Shown here in pieces: positions 6,559 through 34,405 of a DNA stretch of 64,000 bases (its first letter is position 1; the number at the start of each line of letters is the position of its first letter). The translations under genes and the position numbers were made by a program. The notes under the pieces are model-generated. The model was not told where the DNA came from and searched no databases. It saw only the letters and a list, made by a program, of their open reading frames with translations. The DNA comes from Marsupella aquatica (taxonomy: Eukaryota > Plantae > Marchantiophyta): contig OZ316897.1 of NCBI GenBank assembly GCA_973895155.1, forward strand, positions 18,014,457-18,078,456. The letters are read 5' to 3'.

Positions 6559-7364
6559 TTGGGCAACATGAGAACTCCGGGGGAGAGATCAGAGTTTAAT
6601 CGCAAGCGATATGCTCAAAACAAGGATGCCATAAATGCAAGGCGTCGGCAACGATACGCCCAACAACGGTTGCAAGGTGGGAATGTTGTGCACCAGGTCC
6701 ATGCCGCACCCGAGCAAAGTGTCTCGCCCAGTGTGGGGCCCTTGGTTTCTGCAGTACTTCCCACACCATGTGTGCCAACTGTTGTAGAAGAACCGAGGGC
6801 CATTAGTGGCAGACAATTGCGACGGGAAGCAAGGGTTGTACGAGGGGCATCAACAATATCATTGCCCCCCATTGAGGAGACAACTTTGGGACCTACTACA
6901 GTGCCTGGCCGTGCAAGTAGTGTGAGACAATTGCTTCATGAAGCAAGGGGGATGCACCAGGCATTGGCCAGATCCATGGCAATGAGGGCCAATCGAGACG
7001 GTGCCAGTGGTGCCTTGGATGCATGTGAGATTGACCACCCTTTGGAGCAATTTGTGCCTACCCCTCCATGTGAGCCCGTAGCCAACAATGAGCCCAGAGA
7101 TCCCAATGTCTTTGATGAGGATTGGCTCATTCATGGAGCTTTACAGGATGGAGCTGACTCGATGTGTGTCATCCCTACCTGTGAAGCGATACCAAACAGT
7201 GTATGAGCTGACCCTGACATCTTTGACGAGGATTGGCTCATTGATGGTGCCTTGCATGGGGAAGCGGGTCCTATTGTTCACGATGGTGGTGGTCACTTTG
7301 ACACATTTATTGAGGGCACCTTACGTTTGTCAGATGAAGAGGGAGAACAAGAGATTGAGGATAT
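6559..7364 (+). pseudogene. Helitron RepHel N-terminal part (piece 1)
   Basis: Basic NRKRYAQ...ARRRQRY start and a repeated DPxxFDEDWLIxGAL motif. One in-frame TGA at 7204; the frame then runs on to ...EEGEQEIEDI at the CACTA insertion point. Confidence 0.7.
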
Positions 7365-10300
7365 CACTAGAAGAAACCGAGCCATTCTGAGACCCAGCCT
7401 TACATGACTTGTGTGAGACCTTTGAAAATAAGTGACTCCAAGGTTTAGGGTGTCATCTTTGTTACATCTTCTTGACTCACTTTTGGTGAAGTTCTGGGAA
7501 GTCATGTATTTAACTATTGGGAAAGTTGCTTCTGTAACTGAGTTAAGGCAAGTATATTGAAGTTATATAAGTGACCATGACTTACATGATTTCCTTGCCC
7601 AATACATATGATTTTGGATCCATCATATTAATCACATTATGTCATGCAATTATATATAGTTACCTCCCTTTGCTTTAACCATCACTGAGTTGCTCTTTAT
7701 TGTTCCCCTGTAAGAAAGTATACATGACATTTTTACCCTAATTGAAGTTTAGGTAAGTAGGGCAAATTTGTGATTCTAGCTAGACAAGAACCAACCAAAT
7801 TTAAGTTAACATTCATGTACACGGCCGCAACTGAGTTCAAAAAGGTGTGAAAATTTGTGCCATGCCCCCAAAAATAATGATGCACCCTAAACCCTAATAC
7901 TCTACATACATAGTTACCTTAAAAAAGTCACCACAACCAATTAGTGGTACTTGTCACATACTGCTCACACACATATTAAAACTCACCGAGGAATGTCAGA
8001 CTTGGGCCTGCTTTCATGACTGCTTTCATGACTGCTTTTGGGTGTTGTTTTTTGCCATCTGGGTGACTTAGGATATTTATCTAACCCAATGACTATACCC
8101 AAAATACCCAACTAAAAGCCCCCCCCCCCAAAAAAATGCATGCACCCTTGGTCTTAGTTACCGTTTAATCCTAACTGTGAACTTACGTCTATATGTGTTA
8201 GGTGCTTGCAGAATGCCTATGAACGAGTCCTTCCAGTCGACTCAATGTTTAGGGTAAACGGATTTTGTAAAGGAAAATTGCACAAAGTGTCGACGGCTAC
8301 CACCAGGGTTTTCCTTCACGTTTCTGCAAGGGAATCCAAGGCCAAACACTTTGCGCCCGATAATGCACTTTTCCTCAGTTGCTCTCGACTCTTGCACCTG
8401 ATCGCACTCAGTCAATACATTTAGCGCTTTTGGAGGTGGGATTTCATGTCATTGCATAGGGCTTGGAGCTTCGACCTTTGGTATATGACCCATTGTCGAC
8501 TGCAATCTCACTATAGGGTTTAGGTGGGCCCTAAATCTTACATTCGTCTTTCCTGTGGTGACAACGCGGGTGCTAAGGTGTATAGGAGCAAGGTTGTCGG
8601 GAGGTTTATCGCGGATGACTGGCGATTGGTGAGGCCTATTTGCATTCATCTCCACTATCATTGGGTACCCGAGATACAACGATCGACCTTCTATACAGAG
8701 GCGAGGAAGTGACGAGAACCTACAACTCTTTGCGGGAATGCGTGGTCTTCTGCTTACCTGATTGCCCTCATGCTTGACTGTAAATACATTAGTAAAGTTT
8801 TGCTTTGGCTCAACTTTGGTCTTTTTTGGCCTTGCGTGACTGCGCTCACTTCTCTCGGTTTCCAGTGTGCAGTTGGCTAAAGACCTGGATGTCATGCTGT
8901 GAGTGCAAGCTGCTAGTAGTTGTCCATAGCTTGGGGAAAGCGGTGGGGACTGAGGCCACAAAGGAGTTTGACCTGCGCTTTTTTTTCTTTGCAGCAAGAG
9001 CGAGAGTGAGACGAGTTGCAAATTGAGTTTCATTGAGCTGCTGCCTTGGGCTTGGCGGAGGTCCTACACTCTTGTGTTGCTCACTTGTTCAGCTGCGGTG
9101 GGAGTGGGCTTTTGGTAGTGACCTGTTCAGTTGCAGTGGGAGCTGACAACTTTGGTGGCTGTGGTGTTGAGCTTCTGAGGAGGGCAAGCAACTGCGTGAT
9201 GTGCCCTTGAGTGAATGTCTCTTGGAGGAGCTGCGAAGTGGTGAAAGGGGAAGGAGGTGAGCTTGGGCCTGGAAGCAATGTGCTTCTCCAACATTTTTGC
9301 ACAATGCAATGCTGCTCAATCGTTTATCCTTCCTCTAAAGCTGAGTGTGACGCATCGACCTTTGACGGGAGTATCTGCATTACAGTTTGCTACATACGGC
9401 TGCTCTCTGTGTGGCAATCGCCAATAGCTAGCACAATGGAGGGTTCGACGTCAACTTTGAGTCATTGATCAGTGCACACTACATTGCTCTCCCTTTGCTA
9501 AACCCTTTCTTTTGGCTTGGTTCTTGGTGCCTTTGGCATAGGAGCGACGTTATTGCTAATCAACTCCCGAATCAACTTTGGAGGTGCGGGTTAGAAGGGG
9601 TTGGAGAGAGGAGGTCCAAACCGAGAATGCCCTTCACCGTCAACGGTTTCTACTAGTCCCGGCCATGCAGCTGAAAGTGCGCTTCTTTCAGGTGTCGTAG
9701 CATTCTGCCAGCCGGGTGCTTGGACTGCAGAGAAGAGCAGCCACAGTCATTGAGTTCTTCTCCTAGCTCAGCTGCGCATTGTCAACCATCGAGCGCTGCT
9801 GCGCGCTAGCTGTGAACCCCAAGAGGAGCTGCGACAAGGAGGAGATGCAACCAAGAGGAGATGCGACGAAGAGGAGATGCGACCAAGAGAAGCTGCTGCA
9901 TCCCACATTGAGTTGGACATTGAGGTAGGGACGTGAGCTACGCACTTTCAACCATCAAGCAACCACCAAGCTCGGCAGCGCTCTGGGATTTGTTGGCCAC
10001 AGCAGACAAAGCGGAAGACAAAGGTGAGTGTTCGTGCACCGTTAGAGTAACCGCAAGTACTCTATTACATGCCTCGTTGTTCTCTATTACATGCCTTGTT
10101 CTCCCGCCCACTGTTTCCTGCGATTTTCTTTCTTCCATAAGAGAATGGTGATTTCTTCTTCTATCAAACAAAACCCCACCCAACCACCACACAAGAACGT
10201 GGGGTGCGCGCTTCTTAATCCTCCTCAAACTGGCCCATTGTTCATTGAAACCCCACATATTACCCACCGGCACCAAGGGTCCAGTCCCAACCCGTCTTCC

Positions 10301-12019
10301 GCTCCCCACCATCTTCACTCTCTCGCGCATCTATCTCCTGAACGGCGTCGCTCTCCCTTAGACGCAGAATGCTCCGCTGTGATATTGCCTCGAACTTTTC
10401 TAGTGCAGTCTAGGCAATTAGACTGCTTTTGCGAAAACTGCCCTTCTTAAAAGTGAGCAATACTAATAAGCCCCGGGGGTGGAGCGTTTGTTACGATGGC
10501 CGTGGACCTACCGTGGGCTATGGTAGAACACTCTATTGTCTATGATGATTCTGAATCTGCTTGAACTGCGAGTGGATGTGCTTTAAGGCAAACTTGTCGG
10601 AGAAATTAGAATGGGGGGACGGAGCTGTCAGTGCTTAGGTTGTGGCATTTTTGAGATTGTCAAGAGTAATCTGTGATCTCATTTCTAAATGGTTTGAGCT
10701 CCTCTGATGTGCATAGGAATCGGGCTGAGGAAAGCTTTTGGGAGCTATCATCGGAACTAGCTTTCGATCTATTTCTGCTACTTTTGAATTGGTACTTGGG
10801 AAGGCTTTGTATCGTTAAGCACTACAAGATTCACAGGCCAGACCTGCTTGCTAGTATGAGGGGCTTTGAAGGAATGTGTGGCTAGGGCTGATTAAGTATG
10901 GATTAATTTTGCATTGCCTGAGATACTAAAACTGCCACCCGCTTTGTTTCAATGCCTTTGATATTAATTGTTAATATCTCAAGAGGGTTGTCAACTAAGC
11001 TGAAAGGAGTCAAAGCTAACTACAAGCTAGCAAATACAGAGAATGCTCCCAAGTCGAGTCAGGAGGAAGTTACTAAAACTAGACCTTCACAACTCTCGAA
11101 ACTGGAAAGTGAAATTCAGCGTGAGACACGTAGCTGAAGGCCACAAGGATAACTATATGGCCACGCTGTCCCCCATTCAAGTCCAAAGTCCTCTTCAGAT
11201 TGTCTGAACTCCTATTGAATGTATTGAATAATTATTTCATCACAGAAATTTTCAAAACAAACACGGAAGCACCAGGGGGCTGAGGATTGGATATTGAGGC
11301 TGAAGACATTGAGGTCATAAACTAGGTGTGGTTCGGGTGACAATGTTAGCAACTGATGCTTCTTCAGGGGAACTTCCCATGTGCAGTTTATCCACACATG
11401 ATTGACTTTGGTTCTTGCTGTTTTTCTTTTGGTGTACTCTTGAGTTTGGTGTCACTCTATCCTTTCCTGTAGCCTCGAAATAGGAACACACCTGCTTAGT
11501 GGTCCCCAATCGCCCAATGATTTATAATGACTGTGTCTAGGTGATGTATGCATTGCGTGTTCATTCCAGAAGAATGAATATGTACACTTTGCACAAACCT
11601 GGACAGATTTTGAATGTTATTTATCTGAGTTTCTGTTTGTGAGCTCTGACTTGGAGCCTTAACATTTGTGTTTCTGTGGGGCTGAGCAGAGTTTGTTCCG
11701 TCTAGAAGCTGCTGTACTGAAGTGATCAGCCTCCGGCTTGGAGGTGAATCTTCAATTTTTTGTGGATCCGAGTGACTTCTGTCCAGCTGAGTTTTGCTTT
11801 GTCGGGACGATTGTGTTTGGCTAAGATGCTAGATTGTGGCTTATCTTCTTGCTTCCAGCTTGTGTATTTTCAATTAATAGAAGTTGGGAACGAAGTGATA
11901 ATTGAATTTCCTTATATTAAGCATCTTCACCTAGAAACTCAATACATAAACTCCAGGATTCCCTCGGGACATAAAATGAGCCAAATTGTCTCAAAATTGG
12001 GAACCTGCACCCGCACTAC

Positions 12020-12311
12020 TCAAACAATTGTGTTGGGCTTGGTGGCCTTGTAAGTCTTCTTTAGCTTTCGCAATGGAGGTTGAATCTTGCAGTACATCAA
12101 GGGGAACTTGATCTTTGAATCATGGAACTGCTTGGTACTTTCTCGCTTGCACAGAGAGACAGGGACTGTCGTAGTCTTCATGATCTGGATGCAAGGGAAC
12201 CGAACTCTATGACAAGAAGCCATCTCATCATACATCTGCTCTGCAGCTCCGTTTCTTGTGGTATCACAATATTCCTTGTACATGTTGTGATAACCTGTAC
12301 GACTCTGATAC
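12020..12311 (-). pseudogene. RPL18A: Captured C-terminal fragment of 60S ribosomal protein L18a (eL20)
   Basis: [46 protein letters not shown]...[18 protein letters not shown]...[12 protein letters not shown] matches the conserved plant eL20 C-terminal half; the N-terminal half is absent. Confidence 0.9.
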
Positions 12312-13370
12312 GTGGACCCAGATACCGAAGTTCTTAATTGTGGTGGGCTTCTTTTTGAAGATCTGGTAGACACATTATTCAGCATTTGCTAACTTCGAAA
12401 CTAGAAGGGTAACACATTAAACAACAGAGAAACTCACAACATCCTCCTTTGGTCCTTCAGAGTCTGTACTTTGATTCTGAAGTTTGACTGAGTTTTTGTT
12501 TACTAAAAGAATGTGACTGTGTAAGAGTTCCGTTTGGCAGTGGATTGGTTGAAGCACTTCATGCTAGTGTGTTGTCCAAAGCTCTTCAACCAGCTTTCGT
12601 CTTCCTTGTCTTTCACCACTTACGATGACATCAATTCAGCTAAGACCATAGAAGGTTCCAAAGCATCTAACTTGTAAAATCGCATTCTGTTACATCAAGG
12701 ACTAAGGTGTTGGGTGCCAAAGGAGACAGCACAACAAACACGCTAAAAAGACTTCAGGACTGGGTTCAACAAGGTAGTGAAGGTGCTTAGAGCCATAGTA
12801 AGTATGCATTCTGTATCTTTCTCTGTTGATGTGAGCTTGTGCATAATGGGAGTTGTAGTTGGCAAGAGTTCCAAATATGAATAGATCCAGAAGTATGTGA
12901 TCATGTACTTGCTCTATAAAGTTCTGAAGATATAAGCATTTTCTGTTAGACCAGGCAACTTGGGAGTTGGTAAGTGTCACCTGCATCTGAGGGGCTACAC
13001 CGGGGCATCAGTGGAGGTTCACTTGCACAACACGACAACCAGTGAATTTTCTCTCTGCTGCAACCTGCAAGGTGAGACTTTCGGTCTTTCTGGATGAAAA
13101 AACAGGAATTTAATATGATTGATATACATGTCCATCGAGAATATGGGTTTATCACCAAGCTCTTTGTCTTAGGAAACTCATAAACTCAGAATCAAATATG
13201 TACTATGCACGTTTCATGCTATGTGTATACTATGACCTGTAGTTGGAACCAAGACAATGAGTGGGAACTGATTAGTTTAGGTGGTTGCTGTTGGCGAGGC
13301 AAGTCGACCTCCTGCTCACCTTGCTCATCAAAGGACGTGAACAGAGGACATCACAACGAAAGCAACACTT

Positions 13371-13820
13371 ATGGTGAGGACCCGCAACGCTAAACATGTG
13401 CGACTTGCACGCAAGGCAGAGATGTTGCGCCTTGAGTATGTCAGACTTGGGATCCTTCCAGCCCAGTCTGCATGGTACTTTGAGTACCCTGTTGTTTCCA
13501 GGAAAAACTACAGCCGGCCTCTACCTGCTTCAGTACCCTTCCCGACATCCTTGGTATTTGTGTCTCTTGTACATGACCCGCCACAAATTAGGTGCCAAGG
13601 GTGTGTACACAGTTGCCAATATGACTGTCCTGCCTGTAGGGCTTCTGGCCCAGAATTGGATGACCGTTCTCTTGGATGCCGATTTTTGCACAGAGCACAA
13701 TGTATCATCTGGAACCACTCGCCATCCTGCAGTGTGCCTGGTGATGTCACTTGTCCTGCCCTCCCAGACCCCACCACCGGTGACTTTGGTGTCTACACAT
13801 GTTTGGATCACATGCTCTAG
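13371..13820 (+). CDS. Small Cys/His-rich protein of unknown function (CACTA cargo), possibly zinc-binding
   Basis: 149-aa ATG-started ORF with a basic N-terminus and CQGC..C...CPAC....C..LH..QC...C...C..H; same strand as the neighbouring cargo ORFs. Confidence 0.45.
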   Translation: MVRTRNAKHVRLARKAEMLRLEYVRLGILPAQSAWYFEYPVVSRKNYSRPLPASVPFPTSLVFVSLVHDPPQIRCQGCVHSCQYDCPACRASGPELDDRSLGCRFLHRAQCIIWNHSPSCSVPGDVTCPALPDPTTGDFGVYTCLDHML

Positions 13821-14435
13821 AGGACCACTTGTCACACCGCATGCACAGACCAGATACCATTGACCTATAGCTTAACACTCTGACTTCAACACAGAGGATA
13901 TTTACTTAAAATTTTGATGTATGAGCAATTTTGGGTCCAGGGTTTAGGGTCAACAGTACATAACTTATATCCTATTATGCCTGCACTAAGCAAAATATCC
14001 TAATTTAAGAGGCTAGCAAACTCGCATAAAAGTCTCTATTGAAAGACTGCTTTCATGACTGCTTTAACCTGGTGAACATTGCAACGTTGAATGAATTAAT
14101 GGGCCATGTGATAATATGCAAAATGATTTATGCCTCACTTATTTGTCTCAGCCACTATCATAACCTATTTAGGATGTATAAATTTCAACCCTTATGACAC
14201 TGCTTCATACCAATCCTCTTCGAAGAATGCCTGTTTTACATGTCACGACTATTGTATGTGATTCAAATGCATGAAATGTTGTTGCAGATCTCCTTTGGTG
14301 AATCATAGCCACAATTAAAATTGAGGTGTTGGTGGAGAAATTGTATTAGGGGATCAGTTTTGTGTGTGGGCTCAACATACCAAAAGTATGTGTGCTCTGC
14401 ATCCTTGTGTGGCCATTCCAATTCATTGCAGTAGC

Positions 14436-14651
14436 AAATGCCTTTGTACCTTAAATGCTAAATATATTTTACTTTCTGTGCAGTCTGCTAAATTATAGAG
14501 TCTATCTAAATGCCTTTGTACCTTAAATGCTAAATATATTTTACTTTCTATGTAGTCTGCTAAATTGTAGAGTCTATCTAAATGCCTTTGTACCTTAAAT
14601 GCTAAATATATTTTACTTTCTATGCAGTCTGCTAAATTGTAGAGTCTATCT
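14436..14651 (+). repeat. 3 x 72-bp tandem repeat immediately upstream of the PHD ORF
   Basis: Unit aaatgcctttgtaccttaaatgctaaatatattttactttct...agagtctatct starts at 14436, 14508 and 14580; followed by a putative acceptor gcgcag|gcATG. Confidence 0.9.
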
Positions 14652-14662
14652 CATGCGCAGGC

Positions 14663-15343
14663 ATGGCACGGCCTAAAATTCAAGCCAAAAAGCGTGTGAT
14701 AGAGGTGAGAAACACAGGTGTACTTGGGGCAGATGCTACTAACTTCTCTGCAAGTCAGATTTTCCAGAAGGCAGCTCATTGTTGTGCCATTTGTGACGAT
14801 GGTGGGGGCCTGGTCATTTGTGAGGGCCCTTGCATGAGGCATTTCCACCTCAACCCGGAGTCTAACCTTGCTGCAGAAAACAACTGTCCAGGGGTGGGCC
14901 TCCCGTCAACACACCAGGGAGACTGGATGTGCACTGATTGTTTGGAGAAGCAGGCTAAGTGTGCACAGTGTGGGAAGTTGGGGTCCTATGAGGGCTCTGT
15001 TGATGCTGCAGCAAATGTTAGGAAATGTCCAGACCGTTTTTGTGTGAGATTTTTCTGTTTTGAGTGTTTGCCTGCTCATGCCACAGCTTGCCCACTTCAT
15101 AGGTGCAAGGCATGTGGTGAGCATGATGATGACTACTGGACTGACATAGTCCACTGTGCTAGGTGTCCCACTATGTGGCACTATCATTGCCTGAAAGATC
15201 ATCAAGCAGAGGGTTATGCTTGTGACAGAGAAATCTATGATCACTCTGCACATGGTGTTGATCGATGGATATTTTATTGTCATCGCCATGCCATTGATCC
15301 TACCTCGCGCACTCCTGTGAGAGATCACATATCTTGGCTATGA
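14663..15343 (+). CDS. Stand-alone EDM2/NSD-type composite PHD-finger protein
   Basis: CAICDDGGGLVICEGPCMRHFH; WMCTDCLEKQAKCAQCGKLGS; CPLHRCKAC...HCARCPTMWHYHCL; and RWIFYCHRHAIDPTSRTPVRDHI, which parallels the EDM2 motif (LIYCxxHEIDxxLxTPVRDH) closing its PHD cassette. Uninterrupted 226-aa ORF. Confidence 0.85.
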   Translation: MARPKIQAKKRVIEVRNTGVLGADATNFSASQIFQKAAHCCAICDDGGGLVICEGPCMRHFHLNPESNLAAENNCPGVGLPSTHQGDWMCTDCLEKQAKCAQCGKLGSYEGSVDAAANVRKCPDRFCVRFFCFECLPAHATACPLHRCKACGEHDDDYWTDIVHCARCPTMWHYHCLKDHQAEGYACDREIYDHSAHGVDRWIFYCHRHAIDPTSRTPVRDHISWL

Positions 15344-15935
15344 AGCTGAACATTGTACATGCACAGTGCACCTGATGTGGATGTACTATTTTTTGAGATT
15401 GCAGAGATTTCAATTTTGAAAAGGAGTTGGGTAGGCGAGTTTATATAGGCAGCACTTATCTTGTGCTCTGGCGTCAGTGGCTGGGTACATGCCTATACAA
15501 ACTTATCCTTACAAGCCTTCTTGGAAGTATTTAGGCTGAGTGGTCATTTTCATAAACACTTTCATCAGACTGCTAAATTAAAACAGGACTTCTAAGTTGT
15601 AAGCGTATAAATTATCAGGCATGCAATTAATCAAATTGCCCTATAAGTTTGTCATTGAATGTATCCTCCTTTACAACAAAATATGTATGTGCCATGACAA
15701 GTTGGTTGCACTTCATTTCACCACGGATATGGATTTTGTAGTATATATTCAAACAATGTCCTGCATCCGTGCAGGTGCCTAGTACGTATTGTTCACATAT
15801 CCCTTGTACCTATCAAAATCGGACCTGAGCACCAGTGGGCCAGATCAACTCAAAAAGCAGGAATTTTGTTGTCCTTGTATTGTCAGGTGAACCCATTCTT
15901 CCAAAATTCACTGTCATCACGTAGAGTGTGTGTAC

Positions 15936-16808
15936 ATGGAGCCTGGTAAACGTAGAAAGTGTGACCACTCAGCAGTGTTTACAGGGGTCAGAGCGATTTT
16001 GGTCCATGGCCAGCATGGGTTGACCAAAGTGCATTGGCCAACTGTACAGAAACGATTCTCTGAGCTCCATGGCACTGTAGTTCAGGACATCACTCCAGAG
16101 ACTACACATGTTGTTGCAGGGACATGGCTATCAGTGATAAAGAAGTGGTCATGGTCCTACATGAATTCTGCAATTACTAAGCAAGGCCTAAAAGTAGTTG
16201 AGGCCTCTTGGATCACAGATTCCATAGCACATAAGATTGTACAGGATACTGAGCAATATGAGTTGTGGGAGGATGAAGAAGCTACTGCATCAGCTTGGGC
16301 TGAACAAGAAGTCTGGGAAGCAAAGGCACGGCTTGCTGATCTCCAATATGGACCTGTACTCAACAAAGGACAGAGCTCTACAAGGCTGAAGAGTATGTTG
16401 GCTGAGGAGACGAAGCAACCAACCCCCATTCTGAAAGGGCTGAGCATGGTATTTGTGGAGGCGGGAATTGGAGAGGTTAAGTGCAAAGTGTACAAGTCCA
16501 CAGTGCTTGACCTAGGTGGGACAGTGGAGGAGAATATAACAGAGGACACCACTCATGTCATTACTAAGTCATATCCCAAAGCCTGCCGCAAGTTTGGGAA
16601 GGGAGACATTCGCTTTTATGTCATGTCCCATAATGTGTTTGTGGTTTCATATGCTTGGCTTGTGGAATCAGTAGCAGCTGGGAAGCGTCAAAACCCAATG
16701 GACTATGATCTTTTTGAGGCCTGGCCACGGAAGGGTCAGGATCCTTACAGAGAGGACTATGAGACAACAAGTGAGGAATGGGTCATTAGCGATTCTGAAT
16801 CAGAGTGA
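15936..16808 (+). CDS. Tandem BRCT-domain protein resembling the DNA polymerase lambda BRCT
   Basis: Two repeats: FTGVRAILV...LHGTVVQDITPETTHVV...VVEASWITDSI...YEL and LKGLSMVFVEAGI...LGGTVEENITEDTTHVI...VVSYAWLVESVAAGKRQNPMDYDL. Both show BRCT GG/THV/WxxxS-type signatures; no polymerase domain. Confidence 0.82.
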   Translation: MEPGKRRKCDHSAVFTGVRAILVHGQHGLTKVHWPTVQKRFSELHGTVVQDITPETTHVVAGTWLSVIKKWSWSYMNSAITKQGLKVVEASWITDSIAHKIVQDTEQYELWEDEEATASAWAEQEVWEAKARLADLQYGPVLNKGQSSTRLKSMLAEETKQPTPILKGLSMVFVEAGIGEVKCKVYKSTVLDLGGTVEENITEDTTHVITKSYPKACRKFGKGDIRFYVMSHNVFVVSYAWLVESVAAGKRQNPMDYDLFEAWPRKGQDPYREDYETTSEEWVISDSESE

Positions 16809-17241
16809 GGAGTAGTAGCATCAGTTTGGACACAAGTTTTTTTGTATAAATCAGATCATTGAAATAAATGTGATCTTTGAACTAATGTACCTTGTTATGG
16901 TTGGTGGCAGTTGGGCTTATTTTACTGTTGGCGGATTGTTGTTTCCTGCTGCCTGGGGGTGTCACTGTAAACGTACATGCAGAGGCGGTACATTTGAGGA
17001 CAGCGGAGGAGGTGGTGACACCCTCCAACATTTAGGAATTTTGTGTCATTCACTTGACAATAGGTACACTACTTGCGAACCTGTTTTTTTCTTTTGGGGT
17101 GGTTTAGGGTTTGTGAGAATTTAGTACACGTTATGTTAACTCTTTTGGCAGATACAGTCAGGGATATATGGAACACAAATACCACCATTAGGCATCCTTG
17201 TTCACTGCTGTCCATGACTGCAGAGCTCCCAGCCTGTTACA

Positions 17242-20200
17242 ATGCACCCTGGTCACCACCCTCCCCAGACCCAACCCAGGGCACAGGCACTGCCTTTGCA
17301 TCATCCCACAAGGATATCACGCCATGATAATAAGCTTTGGCAGCGTGAAAGGTTACGAACCAGACTTTCAGGAGCCAGTAGGATGAGATGTCCTTGTGCA
17401 ATCTGCCAAGGATCCCGTACCAGGGGTCTGAATGAGGTTTGGCGGCATATCGCGGTTCATGGAAGAGATCCACGACATCGAGTTTGGAATGATCCTGCAG
17501 AGGAAGATTCTTCCGACGAGGAGTGGAGGTTAGAATTTGATGCTGCCAATGCTGCAAGACGGGCAAGTGAGGTTCTGCCTGGTGCATTTGAAAATGTTGT
17601 AGCTGGTCTCTGTGGGTTGTCAGCTCTCCAACGGGATGGTGCTCAGGCAGCACCACGTGACGAAGGAATTCATGTGGAAGAGATGGTGAGAGACATCTTC
17701 CAAGACTTGGATGCATTTCATGATGGGCTGGACAATGAAGAGGATACGGCTGCAGATGCAAGTGTGCCCCCTGTCGAAGAGCCTCTTGATGAGTTTGAGA
17801 TAGGGCAGGAAACCCCTGGGCATGATGGGATGTTTGGCTCTCCCCTGCAAATACAGGAAGGCAAGAAGTCTTTGTACCCCGGTAGCAAATGTTCTAAACT
17901 GGGATTTGTCATCATGTTCCTGAACATTTGCGGCAACCACAATGTCCCCAACGTTTTGGTTTCTGAGTTGTTGGCATTCTTGCGAACAACTGTGCTACCA
18001 GATGGTAATATTTTGCCCAAGAACATGTACGAGGCAAAAAGATGCATATCTAATCTTGGATTGAACTATGATTCGATCCATGCCTGTCCTGATGGGCATG
18101 TTCTTTTCAGAAAGGAGTATAAAGAATCGTTGACATGCCCTAAGTGTGGGAAGCACAGGTATCGGAACTCAGGAAAGTCTATGGTTCCCGCCAAGGTACT
18201 TCGTCATTTTCCACTCATTCCCAGACTTCAGCGGATGTTCAGAAGCCGTGCCATCTCGGAGATGATGACTTGGGCAACTGACAAGAAAAGTGATGATGGG
18301 CTACAACGACATGCTGTAGATTCAAGGCAATGGAAACTCATAGATGAGATGTATCCCGAATTTGCTGCTGAGCCGAGGAATGTCAGACTTGGGCTGTCAT
18401 TGGATGGGGTAAACCCATTTGGAGACAAGAACAACAAATTTTCGTGCTGGCCTGTAACTATTTTGAATTATAACCTTCCTCCTTGGATGACTACAAAGCG
18501 ATTTTTTGTTCTGATGGTCCTACTGATACCAGGGCCAGACAGTGCTGTATCTGCCAACATAGATGTGTTTCTGGCTCCCCTAGTGGAGGAATTGAGAAAG
18601 CTTTGGGAGGAAGGAGTTCTCACATATGATGTCCTACAGAGGCTTGGGAGGTTAAACCCATTCATCCTTAGAGCCATTGTCATTCTGACTATAGCTGACT
18701 ACCCAGCCCATGGGATGATATCAGGCCAAACAACAAAAGGATATTGTGCTTGTACTATCTGTGGGCGCAATGTCACCAGTGAGTACTCCAGAGCCCTGCA
18801 GAAAGTGATATACATGGGCCATCGTCGTTTTCTGAAGGCAGATCACCCTTACAGAGAAAGACAGGCACTGATTGCACACTTTGGCAATGAGATTGAGCAA
18901 CGTGGACCCCCGGCACGAGTGACCAAAGAGGAGATCAGGCAGTGGGGAGCACTGAGGGATGACTATATCAAACGAGGGGGCAGGGAAGATGGAGTGAGTG
19001 ATCCAATAAAGCGATATGGTGTAAAAAGACTGAGCATATTGGACTTGGAGCTCAAGTACTGGAGGGTAAGCCTCTTGGAGTTGATGCTAATTGGGATACA
19101 TGTTTTGGTTCAGAGCATGTGCATTCATTTCGAAGAGAGAGACTAAACTTGAGGCATTTCCTGACGCTTTTGCATTGCAACGATGCAGGAGTTTGAGCCA
19201 AGCAAACATAACATTGATGTTATGCACATTGAAAAGAATATTTGTGAGAGTCTACTCAGATTCTTGTGTGGAGAGAAAGACACTGGTTCAGTGAGATTGG
19301 ATCTTGAACAGAGGGGAATGAAACCCCATCTTTGGTTGAGGCCACATGCCCACAGAGCTGATGTGCTCTTGAAGTACCAAGCGCCCTATGTTCTGACAGA
19401 CACAGAGTGGGAACTATTTGTGCAGAGGTTGAGTTCTTTGAAGGTTCCTTCAAACTATGGCAGTGCTTTCAAGAAGCATATCATGACTAGAAAGCTTGGT
19501 AGTATGAAAAGCCATGACTACCATATGTTGATGCAATAGGTGTTGCCTTTATGCCTGAGGGGCCTGTTGTAGAAGCCTGTTCGTACTGTGATCATGCGAC
19601 TCAGTGATGTGTTTCGTCGTATTTGTGTGAAGGTTTGGGATGAAACACACTTCCCACAACTGACAGAAGATGTCGCTCAGGTGCTGTGTGACCTGGAGAT
19701 TTATTTTCCTCCCACATTTTTTGATGTCATGACCCACCTACTTGTCCATGTTGTGGAAGAGCTACACCAATTTGGGCCTGTGAGTGCTTGGTTGTACCCT
19801 TTGGAACGGTACATGAAGCTACTCAAAGGTCACGTGAGAACATATTACAAACCTGAAGCAAGCATGGCTAAAGGTTACATCAAGGATGAGACTCTGGGAT
19901 TTCTGACCGAATACATAGCACAATATGAGCATGTGAAGACCAGGGTGTGGAATTCTGATGAGGAGGAAGGGGTGATAGGTGAAGTACTGGAAGGGGCTGC
20001 AACCACAAAGAACCTGACCATATCTATGAGAGACTTGGCACATGACTTTGTATTGCACAACACTGTGGTGATGGAACCCTGGATACAGTGAGTGCATACA
20101 TGTGCTATAATCCAGTTCATGAGCTTAAATGTTGTGTTCGTGTGGTTTTCTCCTTCAGCCTGTTCATGTTTACCCAAGCTAATGCTGTGTGGTTGTTCGT

Positions 20201-20970
20201 TCAGGGAGTATGAGTCATTGAAGGCGGCCCATCCCACTGCAGGAACAACTTTTCCAGGTTTCATGGAGTGGATCAGAGTGGCAATTAGAGAGCATCACGA
20301 GACCCACCCAGACATGGATGCAGATGTTTACCTACTGTCTAATGCCCCTAGCCTGAAAGTGAAGACTTACAAACGGATGAGAGCATATGGGAATCACTTC
20401 CGAGTGAAGGATGGTGACAGTGCCTACAGGGTGATGAATGACTGCGGGCTCATCACTGTATTTGAGCAACAGAGCCACAATCATGACAGGGCCTGGATGG
20501 AGATGGGATATGTGGGAGAATTAGTTGACATATGGGCTCTGGACTATGGGGCGGTGTCCAGTCCTGTGATTCTTATGAAAGGTTCATGGGTGCGGCAGGA
20601 TTGGCTTGGTAACAGGGCTACCATGAAGAGAGACAACGACGGTTTCTTGCTGGCCAATTTCAGAGGGAAATTGCCCGAATGGTCTGAGCCATTTGTGTTT
20701 CCTAGTCAGGTGGAGCAAGCTTTCTTCTTGGATGTGGAAGACTCCCCAGGTTGGCGTGTAGTGTGTCATAAACAGGCCAGGCAACGTCGGATGGAAGGAT
20801 CAAACCTTGAGTTTCATTTACACTCTCATAGTGCCTTTGATCGTTGGCGTTCAGACCAAGTGCCTGTAGTTCATGATAGCGGGGACTTCATTCCTGTGAC
20901 AAGGGTAGATGCATTTGCTGAAGGAGGCGAATTCAGAGATGCAAATGCCAACAGTGTGCCTGTGCCATGA
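17242..20970 (+). pseudogene. CACTA TnpD/Tnp2 transposase, 3 exons, with nonsense lesions
   Basis: MRCPCAIC; YDSIHACPDGHVLFRKEY; LRHFPLIPRLQRMF; RNVRLGLSLDGVNPFG; DYPAHG...KGYCAC; DVMHIEKNICE; MKSHDYH; FPPTFFDVMTHL; EPFVFPSQVEQAFF. Predicted introns ~19067-19188 and ~20088-20204; in-frame TAG at 19537 and ~19570. Confidence 0.92.
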
Positions 20971-21126
20971 GTAATGTGAATTGTTTGCATGGACATTAGT
21001 GAGGGGAAGGATGTGTAATAAAGTAATTCTGAAGCAACACAGATGTATGGATGGATGCCTGGTGATTGTGGTTGCATTGTGTTATACGGGGTGACCATAG
21101 ATGACATGTTTTTGTGGTCCAGTAGG

Positions 21127-24100
21127 ATGGAACAGAGTGACACAGAGATGTGTGAGTATGAAAGGAAAGCTATGGAACAACGAGCATACGTGAAAGCCAA
21201 AATCGCAGAACTGGATCTGGAAAAGGATGTGGCTGAATTGTAAGGGAACGATTCTCAACTACACCCCTCCGCTGAGTTTGTGTGACATGAATAGTTCAAT
21301 GTGGCACTGAAATTGTGACTGTATTCTCATATTGGAATGTCGCAGAGCCACAACATTTTCAAAGAAACAAAAGGAGTACACAAGAAGGGTGACCAACACT
21401 ATCTCTGGGCCTGTGCGTCGGAGTGACAGGTTGAGCAAGAAGGTCGTACCTACAATGGCAGAATGTGGAGATGACATTGATGCTGCACAGGTGGGTGCAG
21501 ACACTAGACAAGAAGATGCAGATGATGAGTATTTTCCAAAGGAAATGGATGAGGATGGGGGTTATGAAGATGAATACATTGCAGAGCAGCCCCAAAAGAA
21601 ACATGTAAGTAGTTTTCCCAACAAGGTTTTGAGTTAAAAACTCTTGTTTAGAGGTTTCATATGTTCAGTACTACACATATGTACCTTGCTTAGTTCCTGA
21701 CATTGTAGTTGGTGATGTGATGCAGCGTCCTGCCAGTTCTATTTTGCCTTCGAAGCCTGTGCATGCACCATACCAGCAGGGGGGCTGACCTCTGATCAAG
21801 GTTGGCGAGGTGGTAGTAGTGGTAGATCCCAGGCTGGTGCCCAATACTATGGCAGGGGGCAAGCTCTAGGTTATGCCCGTGGTAGAGGCAGAGCAGGTCC
21901 AAACCCACAATCTCGTGGGTATGGACGTCCACCTCAACCATGGGGATGTGAGTATATATCTATATGCCAGTTCTTTGTGAAGGCATGGCACTCCTGAATT
22001 TCAGACTGCATATCAATTTTTGACATTGTTTGGGATGTATTGGGTTCAGACAACATGAAATTCTGTCCACCTGCCATTGCATGCAGATTCTGCCCAACCT
22101 GATTGGGCAAATGCTAGTAATGATCAGTTCCAATGTCCACAAGGACAGACATGGGTTGAACCAGGTTGGGAGGATGGTGGTGGGTCGTGGAATGAACAAG
22201 GTTGGGAAGGTGGTGAAGGTAATTGGCAGGGATATCAAAATTCAGTACCTACAAACGCTGGAAGAGGAGCAGGTAATGTCTGATCTTGTCAGCAATGGAA
22301 GAACTCATTATATGTGGAGTCCATTCACGTGGGGGGGACTCTGCACATGTATAATGATAGAAAATGTATGTGTGCAGGTTGGACAGTCGAACCATCGACT
22401 CAAGTATTCACTAATGCCCCTATGCAGATGCAGCACGGAAGGGGGACAGGTATGTCGGTGAATGTTCAGTTGTTTTCCTACAGTTTGTACTTAGTTTTCA
22501 GTACATATGTTTGCACACACATACCTAGAAAGTGACATCATCCGGCCCCTGTACTAGGCTGGACAGGTGGTCCAGGGTCGCAACAATTTCAGAGTGCAGT
22601 CCCTGCACAGGCATCTACAGGCAGAGCTATAGGTATGTATGTTTGAAGAATTTTTCTTGAAGTGAAGCATTGAATGTTGCCGTCATCCATTCTGCTATAT
22701 GTAGTTCTCAAGCATGAATGGCATTGTATTTTCCCAGGTGGCTTCAGAACCCCAGGTAGGGTGAATGAAGGGGTGGCCAATACAACGCCCAGTACTACCG
22801 AGAGCAGTGCACGAGGGGAGGTGACAAAGAAAGGGAACGTAAAGTTGAATGAGAGATAATGGGTGGATGCTGAGTGTCCTCGCAAGAACCAATGGCATGC
22901 TGATTTGAAAGCTGAAGTATTGCGTTGGTTAGATGTGAGTGTTATTAATTTTAAAAAACAGCATCCAAAAGATTGGAAGACTGTATGTGAAAATGTTGCT
23001 GCCAAATGGAATTATGTGGGCAGTGATGATGGCGTGGACATAGGTTGCCTAGAGAGTACAGCAGGTAAAATTATCAAGCAAGAGAGGTGGAGAATGCATA
23101 AGGCTTGGAAGGAAGGTGGGGAGAAGCCAGATATGCCTCCACCAGCCAGTTGTGATGATAAAGTGTGGGCAAGGTTAGTAGCTTCAAAAAAGAAGAGTTC
23201 ACAGATGACTGAGGCCAGGTTGAGTGTTCAGAACCCTAATCTGACAGGAAGGACCGGCACTGCACCGACAGCTAAACGTTTGGTAAGAATGAATGGCCTA
23301 GCTATGTAATTTATGCTACACTATGTACTATTTTTTAGTGTAAACCCATACATGTAAACTTTGTTTTTTAGTGTACGTTCCTTGAATATTGATCGATAAC
23401 TTGTGTTTGCCATGCATGTGCAGAAAGCCCAATTGGGGCAAAGCCCTTCAAAAGAAGAGTTGAGGGCTGAAATTGTGAACACCCGGGCTCAAGAGGGTGC
23501 ATCTGAATCCTCCAAGCATGTAAGTTATATGAGTTCTGATTGGTAATTGAATGACCTGCGTTGAATTTCAGGTGTACACTGTATATAACATTGATTGTGC
23601 ATATATTGCCCAACATTTCATATGGAGTGATTGAACCTATACCCCTGTGTCATGTAGGGAGGTGGATCTTCACTTACAGAGATAAGTGGTCGTTTGAAGG
23701 CTGTCGAAACATGTCTTCCAAAGATCAATGAACGTTTGAATTCATTGACTGACTTGTTCCATGTGAACTTCAAGACATTAATGGAAGCTGTTGTGTCGGT
23801 GAGAGATAAAATTGATTCCAATTCTGCAGGAGTTCCACCATCACCACTTGAGGTGGCAAAGTCGATGCACTCTTCTGGCATGCCAACGACATGTAGGCTT
23901 GAAGGTAAGGCCTTTACAACTGTGTGGGATATGATTATTAAATGTATAGTTTGAATTGACATTGTTTGTTGAATGTGTTATTTTCAATAACATATATTGT
24001 GGTTGTTGTGTCCATAGAGAATAAGACAGGTGCTACAGAGAAGAAGTATGAGAACCTGGCAAATACTCGCTATAATTTAGAGGCAACAAAGTTGCAGTCT

Positions 24101-24814
24101 GTACAAGCAACTTGTTTGACAGAGGGCAGTCAACCATGTTTGGATGAGGATGACATTGGCAAGGGAGTGGATGATATCAATGTTGGGGCAAATGAGGATA
24201 TCAGCAAGCATGACAATGATACCATTGAGCCAGATTCATGCTATGTAGATCTTGACTCCATTGCAGAGATAAATGATTTGCAGAATGTATCATTCTCAAT
24301 GACAGGTGTGCCTCTTGTTGAGATAAATCCAACCAAAGAGTTAGTTGGTATGACACTCCCAGGTGATGAACCTGCTACTGTGACAGTCCTAACAGAGGAA
24401 CCTACTGAGCCTAGCTTCACTACTGTGAAGAGAGGAAGCATGCGCACACGAAGCAAGTCTGCTGGTGGGAGCAGAGCCACGTCAAAGGTTTCATACAAAC
24501 CTCCAAGAACAGTGCTGGCAAAAAGATCTAAGGTGGAAGTGGGGAAAGCACCTAATGCTGAGGGACAAAGTGGCTTGTTAGCTGTTGATGAGAGTGGAAC
24601 ACGAGTAGGATTTGCCAGAGTGCAGGTTGGTTCCACAACGTTCCATGGCAAGAGGATTCCCCCAGGTTATTCAGTAGTGTTAGTCACATTACTAGTGAAA
24701 CCTAAAGCTGTCCTTCCCATTCCAAACACAAATGATGATCCTCCTCAAAAGACACTTGGAGATGCTGCAGGTTCTTTGGTATTATGGCCAAGCAAGTTCA
24801 TAGAGGATCCATAA
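21127..24814 (+). CDS. CACTA TnpA-like multi-exon accessory gene with a C-terminal DUF8039/Tnp1-like domain
   Basis: Series of short GT-AG exons downstream of TnpD; last exon ends VGFARVQVGSTTFHGKRIPPGYSVVLV...LPIPN..DDPPQKTLGDAAGSLVLWPSKFI, typical of CACTA ORF2 products. Confidence 0.65.
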
Positions 24815-25353
24815 CAATGTCATGCCATTATTTGTTTGTAGTGTGAGTCATGTTATGTAGATTTTAGATGTCAAGAAGCAGTACAAGAATCATGTCCTCT
24901 TGGAGATTCATAGTATCATGCATGTGCTTTCAGTTATCTCATCCTACAGTCATCAATTATGAGTTCCTGTTTTGTCTAAATTACATTGATCACATTGTAA
25001 ACTATTCCATTGGAATTCAAATGATCTTCATTTTTTAGCAAGATTGTGATTGTGTTTAATTCTTATGAATGTTTTATGTAGGATCTGCTTATATGATGCT
25101 TTGTTTCATGTGGATGTCATTCATGCTATGTTCATTTCTTGTATTCAATGTGTTATATTTCTAAAGTTAGAACATCAGGTTTCTATGTATTGTAATGTCG
25201 AGTGCTCTCTCTCCTTATGAACTGTCCCTCTGTGTTCATTAGTCATGGTTATAACTTGCATGTGAACCTTATTAGTTATAAACATGAGTATATAGAGTCC
25301 CAAATGGTTTTGTTGTGTGACGCGGGCCAGGGTCTCCATTGGTCTCTCCTGTG

Positions 25354-25640
25354 ACACTAAATAGTCACACGCTAGTCGTTGTTGAATGCGGGTAAGTCAT
25401 GTATGTGACTTACGATGTGACTCGCTGAAGTCATATTGCAGTCACGTCGAAACAAGGCTAGACTCCACAATAAAGTCACAGATCAGTCACAAATGGGTAT
25501 CAAGCAAGTTGCAAAGCCCAGTATCAATAGTGACTTCCATTTTTTGGTCTCAACTTTTGCAACTCCAAGGGTCACAGCGTGGGTCAAGTCACGTTGAGTC
25601 ACAATGAAGTCACATGAGCCAAAATGAGTCATATATTGCG
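25354..25640. repeat. CACTA subterminal repeats (AGTCAC/GTGACT)
   Basis: Dense cluster of agtcac/gtgact/agtcat hexamers just inside the right TIR; matching tgact copies at ~7400-7500. Confidence 0.7.
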
Positions 25641-25669
25641 GTCTCAGTTCACCTCAGATTCTTCTAGTG

Positions 25670-26230
25670 ATATCCTCCAACAAGAATTGGGAGGGAGTAA
25701 CCTTGCACCAGTTACCCCGGCTCAACCCAGTGCAGAAGATATTTTGAGAGAGCGTCAAAGATTGGAGCAAATACAAAGTTTGCCAAAGGCACGACAACCT
25801 TTGGATCCTTCGATGGGTCGACACATTTTGGGACGGATGAACATTGAGTGTTCATGTTGTAAAGCTCTTCATTGGATTGAAGAGTGCAAGTCCGGAACAC
25901 AACGCCATCCGTGCTTCACGATGTGTTGTGCCGATGGGAAGGTGGATTTGCCTCCAATTGGTGCTCCTCCAGAGCCTTTGCGGAGTTTGTTGACTGGAAG
26001 TAACGTTGCGGCTACAACCTTTCGGAAGAATATTAGAGGGTACAATAATGCCTTGGCTTTTACATCAATAGGTGTTAAAATTGATGAAAGGGGGGGCAAC
26101 CAGGGTCCGTATTCATTTCGCATACAAGGAGCTTTATATCATCGGGCCGACAGCCTCTTGCCGCCTGATGGAGAGGGTCCCAAGTTTGCTCAACTCTATA
26201 TTCATGACACGGGGAATGAGTTGGGCAACA
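25670..26230 (+). pseudogene. Helitron RepHel piece 2 (zinc-finger-like region)
   Basis: LGRMNIECSCCKALHWIEE...CCADGKVDLPP...FRKNIRGYNNALAFTSIG...FRIQGALYH...PKFAQLYIHD, then a putative GT donor at ~26231. Confidence 0.9.
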
Positions 26231-26688
26231 AGTATTTTCACATTCAACTTGAACCATCTTCCTCCATCTTCCTCTTATGACGCATTTTTGTTTGCAATAA
26301 GTTGAGATCAGCCTATTCATTAAAAGTGTATTTTCTTTTGTTCACAAATCAGTCCTGAAATGTACAATTTTATGTCCCCAAATGTACACTTTACGAAGCC
26401 CAAATGTACACTTTATAGGCCAAATCTTATTAGTATTATATTAATATATTATATTATATTATATTATATTATATTAATTATAATAGTATTATATTACTTA
26501 TTAGTTCACAAAGAACCATGGGATAGAGATCATACTTGTAAAAACATTTCCGCACAAAGAAGCCCAGGCAAGGACCATTGATTGATAAAGTGTGAAAATA
26601 ATTATTTACAATTGTGTCCAAACTTACAATGAATATCCAGGGCTGGCACCATTTTTACTATCTAATGGGCTTAACATGAGTCAGATCT

Positions 26689-27822
26689 CTAAACAAAGTG
26701 CTCCTTACAATATTTATTTGAGCACGTGTCTTTGTCTCCTTTACTATCTACCCTAATGTCACAGTTGCAACTCCCTTTATCTTCAGGGAGATGAAATTTG
26801 GTGGTGTTGTTCCTAACTGCTATAATCTCCCGCAAAAAGTGTCTGGGATTTTCTCTATACAGACCTGAATATTCCTGTCCTACAAATGATCTAGCAAGTG
26901 AGGTGACAAGTGCATCGTCAAGTTCCACCTCAGGACGTAAGCTACATATACGGTGCTTCACAGCCCAAGGAATCTCATTGCTATTGAGGTCCAGCACACT
27001 ATGCCTATACTGTGACTTCCAAATTTTTGCTGCACATCTCTTACTAAGTTGATCATAAGTAATCTCATTTTTTGCCTTGTCTCTCTTAATGTGCAATAGA
27101 GACCACTTTGGAGAGTTTAGGAGAAGATAACAACGAATGTCACTTGCATGTGACAGTTTCTCAAGACATGGCCAAAGAATTGTTAGAAGAAAATTGTCTC
27201 CACGATTGGCATGCGTGTAGGACACTGGAAATAGTCCGGTCATGTCTGGGTTGGCAAATGCCTTCAAGGGGGAGTCATCCACAAGGAGTGTGTTGGTTTC
27301 ATCATATAGATTTCCAAATGCACTCCATACCACCCAAAAATCCTTCAATAGCACATTTGCCTTTCCATTTGTAATGTCACGCCTTTGAATGCCTGTGTCA
27401 AAGGCTTCCACCTGTGTGAATACAAACTTCAGTTTCAACCGCTCCTCAATTGTGAACATCATGTTCAACATTTTCACTGTTCGCGGCATCCCAACACATG
27501 TCCAAATTGCAACGTCAAACCTGTCAAAAACCAACTTTAGAAACTCATGGAGCCCTGGCCTCTCTGTATACATGCGACTAGTTCCATTTGATCTATCCCA
27601 ATGCACTCCACTTGAGGTGACAATATTCCTGGATGTGCCCTTGCTTTGGAATTCAATAGAATCCCAAAGTATTTTATTAAGGTCCAAAATCAGCAACTTC
27701 CGCTTGAGGGGACCAGGTCTCGATTTTGCAAGTGCACCAAACACCATTCTCAGAGACAAGACCAAAAGTGAACTTTGGATTAGGATTGTCTCAGTCCAAA
27801 AATACAAGACAATGGCTGACAA
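26689..27822 (-). CDS. FCP1/SCP (NIF)-family HAD phosphatase-like protein, TE cargo
   Basis: KRKLLILDLNKIL (motif I variant), RPGLHEFLKLVFDRFDVAIWT, LLKDFWVVW, YDETNTLLVDDSPLKAFANP. Open 377-codon frame; true start may be in an upstream exon. Confidence 0.8.
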   Translation of the reverse strand: MSAIVLYFWTETILIQSSLLVLSLRMVFGALAKSRPGPLKRKLLILDLNKILWDSIEFQSKGTSRNIVTSSGVHWDRSNGTSRMYTERPGLHEFLKLVFDRFDVAIWTCVGMPRTVKMLNMMFTIEERLKLKFVFTQVEAFDTGIQRRDITNGKANVLLKDFWVVWSAFGNLYDETNTLLVDDSPLKAFANPDMTGLFPVSYTHANRGDNFLLTILWPCLEKLSHASDIRCYLLLNSPKWSLLHIKRDKAKNEITYDQLSKRCAAKIWKSQYRHSVLDLNSNEIPWAVKHRICSLRPEVELDDALVTSLARSFVGQEYSGLYRENPRHFLREIIAVRNNTTKFHLPEDKGSCNCDIRVDSKGDKDTCSNKYCKEHFV

Positions 27823-31943: not shown

Positions 31944-32340
31944 CGGACTGAGACCATCCCAGTCCAACATAGAACTAGACAGTATTAGTGGAAATATTCT
32001 ATTGAATGTGCATGATTTAGTTTGGACTGGGACCATCCCAGTCCAGAACAAAACTAGACAGTATTAGTGAAAAAAAAATCTATTGAATGTGTATGAATCC
32101 ATTTGGACTGGGACCATCCTAGTCCAACGCAAAACTAGGCGATATCAGTGGAAATATTCTATTGAATGTGCATGAATCCATTTGGACTGGGACCATCCCA
32201 GTCCAACACAAAACTAGACAATATCAGTGGACAAAGATTCTACTGAATGTGCATGAATCCATTTGGACTGGGACCATCCCAGTCCAACGCAAAACTAGGT
32301 GATATCACTGGAAATATTCTACTGAATGTGCATGAATCTA
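31944..32340. repeat. ~5 x ~80-bp tandem repeat containing the palindrome GGACTGGGACCATCCCAGTCC
   Basis: Units at ~31945, 32022, 32103, 32182 and 32263; lies in a predicted intron of the ParB/MTase gene. Confidence 0.85.
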
Positions 32341-34119: not shown

Positions 34120-34405
34120 GATTAGGATGGTCCTAGTCCAACTTGAGATGGTTTTAGACTTGCTCCTACAATCGGGATTCAATCTCCTAGATGGATTAGG
34201 ATCATCCGAGTCCAAGTTTGGATTGGGATGGTCCGAGTCCAAGTTTGGATTGGGATGGTTCGAGTCCAAGTTTGGATTGGGATGGTCCGAGTCCAAGTTT
34301 GGATTGGGATGGTCCGAGTCCAAGTTTGGATTGGGATGGTCCGAGTCCAACTTTGGATTGGGATGGTCCGAGTCCAACTTTGGACTCGGATGGTCCCAGT
34401 CCTCT
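34120..34405. repeat. 27-bp tandem array GGATTGGGATGGTCCGAGTCCAAGTTT
   Basis: About 8-9 near-identical units carrying the same imperfect palindrome as the 80-bp repeat, in opposite orientation. Confidence 0.9.

Follow-up and report, generated by a model that had tools for sequence, protein, structure and literature searches.

How transposons resist silencing in plants is understood at the molecular level for only a handful of proteins, such as VANC of the VANDAL elements, which binds DNA in a sequence-specific manner. Accessory chromatin genes of transposons and anti-silencing by VANC are described in a recent preprint (10.1101/2025.02.11.637652) and form the precedent for the role proposed below. 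According to the same source, Plavaka belongs to the EnSpm/CACTA superfamily, and its accessory genes (PAGs) encode methylase/SET and ParB/oxygenase proteins (10.1101/2025.02.11.637652). In the host, EDM2 has been reported to promote full-length transcripts through heterochromatin (PMC7529245), and its PHD fingers to recognize H3K9 methylation (PMC4980392).

In the window, a stretch of 64,000 nucleotides of Marsupella aquatica (contig OZ316897.1), an intact open reading frame (ORF) of 226 amino acids was identified at positions 14663–15343 of the plus strand, with an ATG at 14663 and a TGA at 15341–15343. It encodes a stand-alone cassette of three EDM2-type PHD fingers and is located inside a CACTA transposon.

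The CACTA Element

The element spans positions 7365–25669 (18.3 kb), starts with CACTA and finishes with TAGTG. Of its terminal 30 bases, 23 are complementary between the two ends. The following features define it:

7361 to 7364, no strand: left copy of the 4-bp target-site duplication, ATAT (comparison of the flanks, empty-site joints)
7365 to 7394, plus strand: left terminal inverted repeat, starting with CACTA (23/30 complementary)
17218 to 20970, plus strand: CACTA transposase, divided over four open stretches, with Transpos_assoc, Transposase_21, DUF4218, and DUF4216 (Pfam)
25640 to 25669, minus strand: right terminal inverted repeat, finishing with TAGTG (inverted-repeat search)
25670 to 25673, no strand: right copy of the target-site duplication; the element has inserted into a reading frame resembling Helitron Rep

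Transposase_21 was matched with an E-value of 4e-70, and the matches to Transpos_assoc and DUF4216 are under the cut-off. The element is assigned to the CACTA/EnSpm superfamily by its ends and transposase alone. As the PHD ORF lies between these ends and upstream of the transposase, the initial annotation was right in calling it transposon-encoded.

ATAT flanks the element on both sides, and three contig joints from two runs span an empty site with one copy of it. In addition, taking out four bases keeps the flanking reading frame open at the insertion site. Therefore, the duplication is 4 bp long at the single insertion examined. A 2-bp duplication (AT/AT) was ruled out, since the empty sites and the flanking frame fit 4 bp. 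The target-site duplication of plant CACTA elements is typically 3 bp long, from which the ATAT of this one insertion differs. The Rep identity of the interrupted Helitron frame was assigned by eye, and a Helitron_like_N match is located at 41727–43445.

Contigs of four runs, each from a different study, cover 30, 30, 30, and 27 of the 30 bins of the region. They include many variant contigs, which fits a multi-copy element family. No RNA run was listed among those containing the region, which speaks neither for nor against expression. The summed contig depth is higher in the PHD bin than in the element body, and in run X6 the deep bins are mostly those of the PHD gene and the transposase; as the runs were recruited by matching the region, depth does not equal copy number in either comparison.

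Further mobile elements were observed in the window. The second of two large elements is located at 26307–41391 and is bounded by inverted ends of 34 nt. Its minus-strand ORFs include a NIF-like phosphatase (26692–27831) and an ORF with an N6/N4 DNA methylase motif (28571–29125), and it also contains a ParB-like ORF (32579–33211, recognized by eye only and without Pfam support), arrays of a 27-bp palindromic repeat (34083–36392), and a DUF7869 ORF. Its layout resembles that of PAG2/PAG3 as described for Plavaka (10.1101/2025.02.11.637652). At 38383–39225, a small element with CACTA ends, flanked by a duplication of 3 bp (CAA), sits between two long plus-strand ORFs (36392–38416 and 39224–40813) and probably splits one gene. 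Helitron Rep/helicase pieces flank the second element (25670–26277 and 41395–44117), and both large elements appear to be nested in one Helitron. Finally, a Gypsy-type retroelement with gag, RT, RNase H, and integrase was found on the minus strand at 50996–63431. Direct repeats of 300 nt, identical in sequence and located at 50996 and 63132, bound this retroelement, which carries an extra 881-aa ORF (52929–55571) with no Pfam match.

Cargo Genes Upstream of the Transposase

On one strand, a Cys-rich ORF, the PHD ORF, and a twin-BRCT ORF follow each other and are then followed by the transposase:

13371 to 13820, plus strand: Cys/His-rich cargo ORF, 149 aa, beginning with MVRTR (no Pfam family)
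14436 to 14651, plus strand: three 72-bp tandem copies just 5′ of the PHD start, followed by a putative splice acceptor at 14659–14660 (repeat search)
14663 to 15343, plus strand: stand-alone EDM2-type triple-PHD ORF, 226 aa (ORF list, Pfam, ligand count, AlphaFold2)
15936 to 16808, plus strand: twin-BRCT cargo ORF (Pfam BRCT, E 2e-13, two stretches)

The Cys-rich ORF has two relatives with 54–56% identity, and the MVRTR start is present in all three sequences; PAF15 is bound by PHD fingers through a VRT start. A complex prediction for the PHD cassette and this Cys-rich neighbor gave a score of 0.00, with an uncertain fold of the partner.

The three co-oriented cargo ORFs immediately upstream of the transposase, as well as the insertion of this CACTA copy into the reading frame of another transposon, would suit a transposition cofactor. 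The PHD protein would then, together with the twin-BRCT and Cys-rich proteins, anchor the transposase at particular chromatin or direct the repair of insertion and excision sites. We consider this distinctly unlikely, as a single insertion site is uninformative on bias, insertions in the window fall by default into transposon-dense DNA, and PHD and transposase are encoded separately, with no fusion in the 18.3-kb element.

Domain Composition and Predicted Fold

Three Pfam models match the 226-aa protein, namely PHD-1st_NSD (aa 39–93), PHD_NSD (aa 96–140), and PHDvar_NSD (aa 148–180), each under its curated cut-off. The fingers are arranged as follows:

14783 to 14941, plus strand: PHD1, C41–C93, of the C4HC3 type, with QKAAHC in front and without acidic residues there (Pfam, ligand pattern)
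14960 to 15100, plus strand: PHD2, C100–H146, with Cys132 where the host has His and a 7-residue spacer instead of 15–27 residues (ligand and spacing comparison)
15104 to 15340, plus strand: PHD3, C148–H209, and the EDM2-type C-terminal motif TPVRDHISW (ligand and motif comparison)

All 24 expected zinc-ligand positions are occupied by Cys or His, and the protein ends in YCHRHAIDPTSRTPVRDHISWL. The composite triple PHD with this C-terminus, which had been noticed in the initial annotation, could thus be confirmed, and the same holds for its statement that the protein contains nothing else: Pfam detected PHD models only and no second domain. SET, PWWP, and RFTS (DNMT1-RFD) domains were absent from the ORF in the Pfam scan. 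An N6-adenine methyltransferase-like (ELP) domain is absent as well, the ORF stopping 17 residues past the last ligand. RFTS was detected in 3 of the 17 scanned relatives, all of them of seed-plant type, and in none of the liverwort relatives.

In the AlphaFold2 model built on a 103-row alignment, residues 26–226 are folded (mean pLDDT 88, pTM 0.82) and residues 1–25 have mostly a pLDDT <50; a 6-row alignment gave a poor model (pLDDT 49). Foldseek returned partial PHD-type matches only, the best being PZP domains (E 1e-5, TM about 0.2), and the best match of the VIA fold search was partial as well (PHDvC5HCH of NSD2, Z 5.4, rmsd 2.6, 75 aligned residues). A structural match to the whole cassette was not among the fold-search matches listed by Foldseek and VIA, which is no proof of a new fold. 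The best sequence matches of a PDB search with the family profile were NSD2 and NSD3, and no plant EDM2 chain was returned by this search.

Relatives and Phylogenetic Position

Searching proteins of near-equal length yielded 5 relatives among 110 candidates (217–245 aa, 37–82% identity), all of which retain the length, start, and stop of the PHD ORF. With a profile, 564 proteins were retrieved at E ≤ 0.001, the best 150 of which were inspected. The top matches among these 150 are short proteins of the same architecture (Logan/JGI), and the best named ones are EDM2 and EDM2-like proteins of Calypogeia, Marchantia, Riccia, Diphasiastrum, Selaginella, and seed plants, which points weakly to a host outside the seed plants. 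A longer member of the short-protein clade was not found among the best 150 of the 564 matches, nor in a search aimed at longer proteins, which gave 3 matches among 2795 candidates and is weak evidence. Some relatives appear frameshifted or cut (e.g., P0014, P0048, P0144, and P0145), as is expected of transposon copies.

A metagenome scan yielded 11 loci, with no member of the family clade among them. Seven loci read as EDM2 or stand-alone EDM2-like sequences of grasses and three as unrelated PHD proteins, and one is without a long ORF. Stand-alone EDM2-like PHD genes of grasses were located at L004 541–1662 and L005 137–1276. The gene was seen within element ends in this one window, as the relatives sit on short contigs; describing the whole clade as transposon-borne would extrapolate from it.

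The short proteins form one group (16 rows, support 92) in a FastTree phylogeny of 160 rows, from which 9 of 169 rows, six of them family fragments, had been dropped as too short. In an IQ-TREE phylogeny of 49 rows picked by hand from the 160, 12 family rows form a clade (100/100) with a stem of 1.14, which belongs to a broader EDM2-like group (85/91) but not to the clade of land-plant EDM2 orthologues (99/94). Joining the family clade to the NSD/amoebal outgroup was not rejected by the AU test (p 0.31), so that the tree alone is no proof of a capture from EDM2. The phylogeny against EDM2 and NSD fingers suggested in the initial annotation thus places the family in the EDM2-like group and outside the orthologue clade, and leaves the outgroup placement tenable.

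The profile comparison matched a Marchantia EDM2-like protein with an E-value of 2e-30 through the C-terminal motif and a fish NSD2 with 1.5e-12 without it. TPxRDH after the last finger, a marker set in this analysis, is present in EDM2-like proteins and unmatched in NSD and amoebal rows. Given the result of the AU test, the label EDM2-type is based on the best matches, this motif, and the profile comparison, which together bear out the identity initially assigned to the fingers. An unrelated PHD class was ruled out by the EDM2-like best matches and the difference between the two E-values. Judged from the trees and alignments, the family clade is old and distinct from the host EDM2 orthologues, and the PHD ORF is no recently captured host fragment.

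Conservation of the ORF and Its Start

Among the best-supported 40 of 128 listed differences between copies, 37 are located in the PHD ORF. Of these, 16 are synonymous, compared with an expected 21–27% (p 0.002–0.02; pN/pS 0.35–0.48), in a rough test that scores site by site and mixes copies and species. A ligand codon is touched by one of the 37 variants, which is silent, and one variant site taken alone creates a stop, with two adjacent changes of equal depth in the same codon. None of the six listed indels lies within the ORF. By this pattern, the PHD ORF is conserved like a working gene, which indicates usefulness and says nothing for anti-silencing.

The sequence cag|gc ahead of the ATG at 14663 is a possible splice acceptor (14659–14660, 2 nt before the ATG), and it is possible that an upstream exon is joined to the PHD ORF at about 14660. 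P0003 and P0014 have similar residues ahead of their Met. The ORF might therefore be an exon of a longer spliced product or, with the broken relatives in mind, a captured host fragment without benefit. Both readings are highly improbable: relatives down to 37% identity retain the ligands, the start motif, and the place of the stop, synonymous variants are in excess, the loss of the acidic cluster and the changes in PHD2 described below are shared clade-wide, and the searches for longer clade members, the second of them weak, point the same way. Furthermore, 13 of the 22 family rows have a Met that is immediately followed by [AST]R, which argues for the ATG at 14663 as the true start.

Departures From EDM2 in the Fingers

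Asp or Glu is missing from the six positions that precede Cys1, the first Cys of PHD1, in all 15 matched family rows, whereas at least one is present in 155 of the 156 other matched proteins; 3 of the 18 family rows did not match the Cys1 pattern, and the 156 others include isoforms and close kin. According to PMC3241642, unmodified K4, and sometimes R8/K9, is contacted by this acidic cluster before Cys1. The residue ahead of the third Cys of PHD1 (I52) is hydrophobic, as it is across the family rows. In PHD2, the His ligand is replaced by Cys and the insert is deleted, leaving a spacer of 7 residues, in 8/8 family rows checked; nine matching non-family proteins all have His and a spacer of 15–27 residues, and two more were unmatched. 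Additionally, a conserved F/W-S/T-x-x-E/Q-x-x-Q segment, partly helical in the model, precedes PHD1.

The initial annotation had suggested that the protein reads H3K9me2. Binding of H3K9me2 tails in the manner of EDM2 would allow it to mask the mark or to compete with host EDM2 in the ASI1–AIPP1 complex. The protein retains its three fingers with all 24 ligand positions as well as the C-terminal motif, the residues which EDM2 uses for K9me2 may be intact, and the reported recognition of H3K9 methylation by EDM2 PHDs (PMC4980392) would fit. However, the lost acidic cluster, the remodeled PHD2, and the segment before PHD1 make it unsafe to carry over the H3K9-methyl reading of EDM2, and the family clade has a long stem branch. 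Such EDM2-like reading of H3K9me2 is doubtful and, as an explanation of the gene, has a quite low probability. The initial reading thus stands for a transposon-borne, EDM2-type, PHD-only protein and is weakened in its functional part by the absence of the acidic cluster (present in 0/15), the remodeled PHD2, and the missing rest of EDM2. The H3-like tail, the old and separate clade, the cargo genes next to the PHD gene, and the grass host genes for stand-alone EDM2 PHDs went unmentioned in it.

The Basic N-Terminal Tail

Ahead of the fingers, the following feature was identified:

14666 to 14692, plus strand: basic nonapeptide ARPKIQAKK after Met, predicted to be disordered (5/9 identical to histone H3 1–9)

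Histone H3 starts with ARTKQTARK (PMC3022755). In the 17 of 22 family rows which could be aligned to it, R2 is present in 16, K4 in 17, A7 in 10, and K9 in 11, and five identities are reached by composition-matched random 9-mers with p 7e-4. The position of T3 is mostly P and that of R8 mostly K. In the 13 Met-anchored rows, of which columns 1 and 2 are fixed by selection, K4 is found in 10, A/S7 in 10, and K9 in 6, and Lys is also found at position 6 (7/13) and position 8 (6/13). The linker following the tail is unconserved. In one subgroup, the motif is set back into the chain by about 6 residues, and P0002 and P0003 are without K4. When residues 1–24 were searched against the PDB, there were no matches at E ≤ 10 and thus no histone chain.

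Such a tail might act as a decoy, in which the Met-free A-R-x-K-x-x-A-x-K imitates H3 1–9 and occupies host readers or writers of the H3 tail, with the PHD cassette as its carrier; in a variant, the tail would occupy the fingers of the protein itself as a switch. The identities to H3, their recurrence in the family and their p-value, the unconserved linker behind the tail, and the MAR(T/V/A) and MARxK starts of host proteins given below are in line with it. On the other hand, the pattern was spotted post hoc in related rows, the alignment draws basic residues into register and the Met-anchored counts are weaker, T3 and R8 are mostly replaced, the internal motif of the subgroup and the two proteins without K4 deviate, and the tail is unstructured in the model. 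A nuclear-localization signal explains much of the tail pattern, and such a signal or an RPK-type DNA arm accounts for the tail equally well. We regard the decoy as unlikely, if less so than the reading of the protein as an EDM2-like reader. The same low probability is given to its family-wide form, in which a mini-EDM2 module would have given up its acidic pocket and would display an H3(1–9)-like tail that lures H3K4/H3K9 readers and writers off the element. If true, H3 mimicry by a transposon would parallel the histone mimicry of viruses, with the N-terminal AR motif of early-plant EDM2 as its starting point.

A MAR start was also observed in 12 of the 127 longer matches, mostly EDM2-like proteins from outside the seed plants. 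MART, MARV, or MARA starts occur in the non-seed-plant EDM2-like proteins P0017, P0021, P0027, P0015, P0018, P0020, P0082, P0093, and P0121, and the N-terminus of the Marchantia EDM2-like protein has 5/9 identities to H3 1–9. MARxK starts are found in three grass stand-alone EDM2-like PHD proteins (P0034, P0042, and P0059), whose branch is distant from that of the transposon family. In host EDM2, the MAR start may serve as a tail that binds the protein itself, and the EDM2-type PHD cassette may repeatedly be accompanied by an N-terminal AR.

Proposed Role of the PHD Protein

The explanation we favor, plausible while somewhat short of an even chance, is that the PHD ORF is a conserved CACTA accessory gene encoding a non-catalytic chromatin adaptor, which keeps the element expressed despite silencing and likely works by a route unlike that of host EDM2. 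An ancestral element would have taken up the EDM2 finger cassette, whereby the RFTS and methyltransferase-like parts were dropped, and PHD1 would have lost its host-style grip on the H3 tail. The protein would be expressed and brought into the nucleus by its basic tail, where the conserved PHD2–PHD3/C-terminal surface could bind chromatin or host chromatin proteins. This binding may favor transcription of the element, as a part of the heterochromatin read-through role of EDM2 with changed specificity.

Comparison With Known Systems

With Arabidopsis and other land-plant EDM2 proteins (PMC7529245, PMC3632883, PMC4980392), the transposon protein has in common the atypical PHD repeat, the ligand spacing, and the C-terminal C-x-x-H…TPxRDH. 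It differs in its size (226 aa compared with about 1200–1600 aa), in the missing RFTS, acidic, and methyltransferase-like (ELP) domains, in the absent acidic cluster before PHD1, in the His-to-Cys change and shortening of PHD2, in its separate clade, and in being transposon-borne. By these features it is related to EDM2 and not a full member.

Closer in architecture are the liverwort EDM2-like paralogues CAM6087769.1 (Calypogeia), KAL3685775.1 (Riccia), and PTQ48678.1 (Marchantia), which finish in the PHD cassette, and the grass stand-alone EDM2-like PHD proteins KAK3151256.1 (Eleusine) and Os03g0266600. They share the cassette without a methyltransferase-like domain, and several start with MAR or MARxK, but they are annotated host genes which retain the acidic cluster and the His of PHD2 and fall elsewhere in the tree. 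Stand-alone EDM2 PHD proteins are in themselves no novelty, and since grasses have them as ordinary genes, this architecture is not special to transposons.

The PHD1–3 of NSD1/2/3 are of the same composite finger type (PHD-1st_NSD, PHD_NSD, PHDvar_NSD). The transposon protein lacks their SET and PWWP domains, whereas they lack the C-terminal motif and match more weakly than EDM2. With readers of unmodified H3K4 of the AIRE/BHC80 type it shares the hydrophobic residue before the third Cys (I52), but not the acidic cluster (0/15 family rows).

Angiosperm CACTA elements, as described in PMC8978399, show the same order of TAD, Transposase_21, DUF4218, and DUF4216 and the CACTA ends; their extra domains are Transposase_24 and Peptidase_C48 (PMC8978399), while the 18.3-kb element differs by its 4-bp duplication. 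The term PHD does not occur in the main texts of PMC13547354, PMC8978399, and the Plavaka preprint (10.1101/2025.02.11.637652). A literature search by titles and opening lines of abstracts, with subscription journals and repeat databases outside its scope, found neither a transposon-borne EDM2 module nor a transposon histone mimic.

Like the PHD gene, VANC (VANDAL) and PAG1-3 of the red algal Plavaka elements are separate accessory genes within DNA transposons, which are proposed or shown to manage the chromatin of their element (10.1101/2025.02.11.637652). By analogy, the PHD protein would work like such an accessory chromatin factor. The clade-wide changes (loss of the acidic cluster, shortened PHD2, H3-like tail) offer natural contrasts to locate the residues on which EDM2 itself depends. 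Finally, a small, single-ORF, well-folded module of EDM2/NSD fingers under selection is a candidate for a different strategy, in which a host chromatin reader would be reused or jammed instead of DNA being bound.
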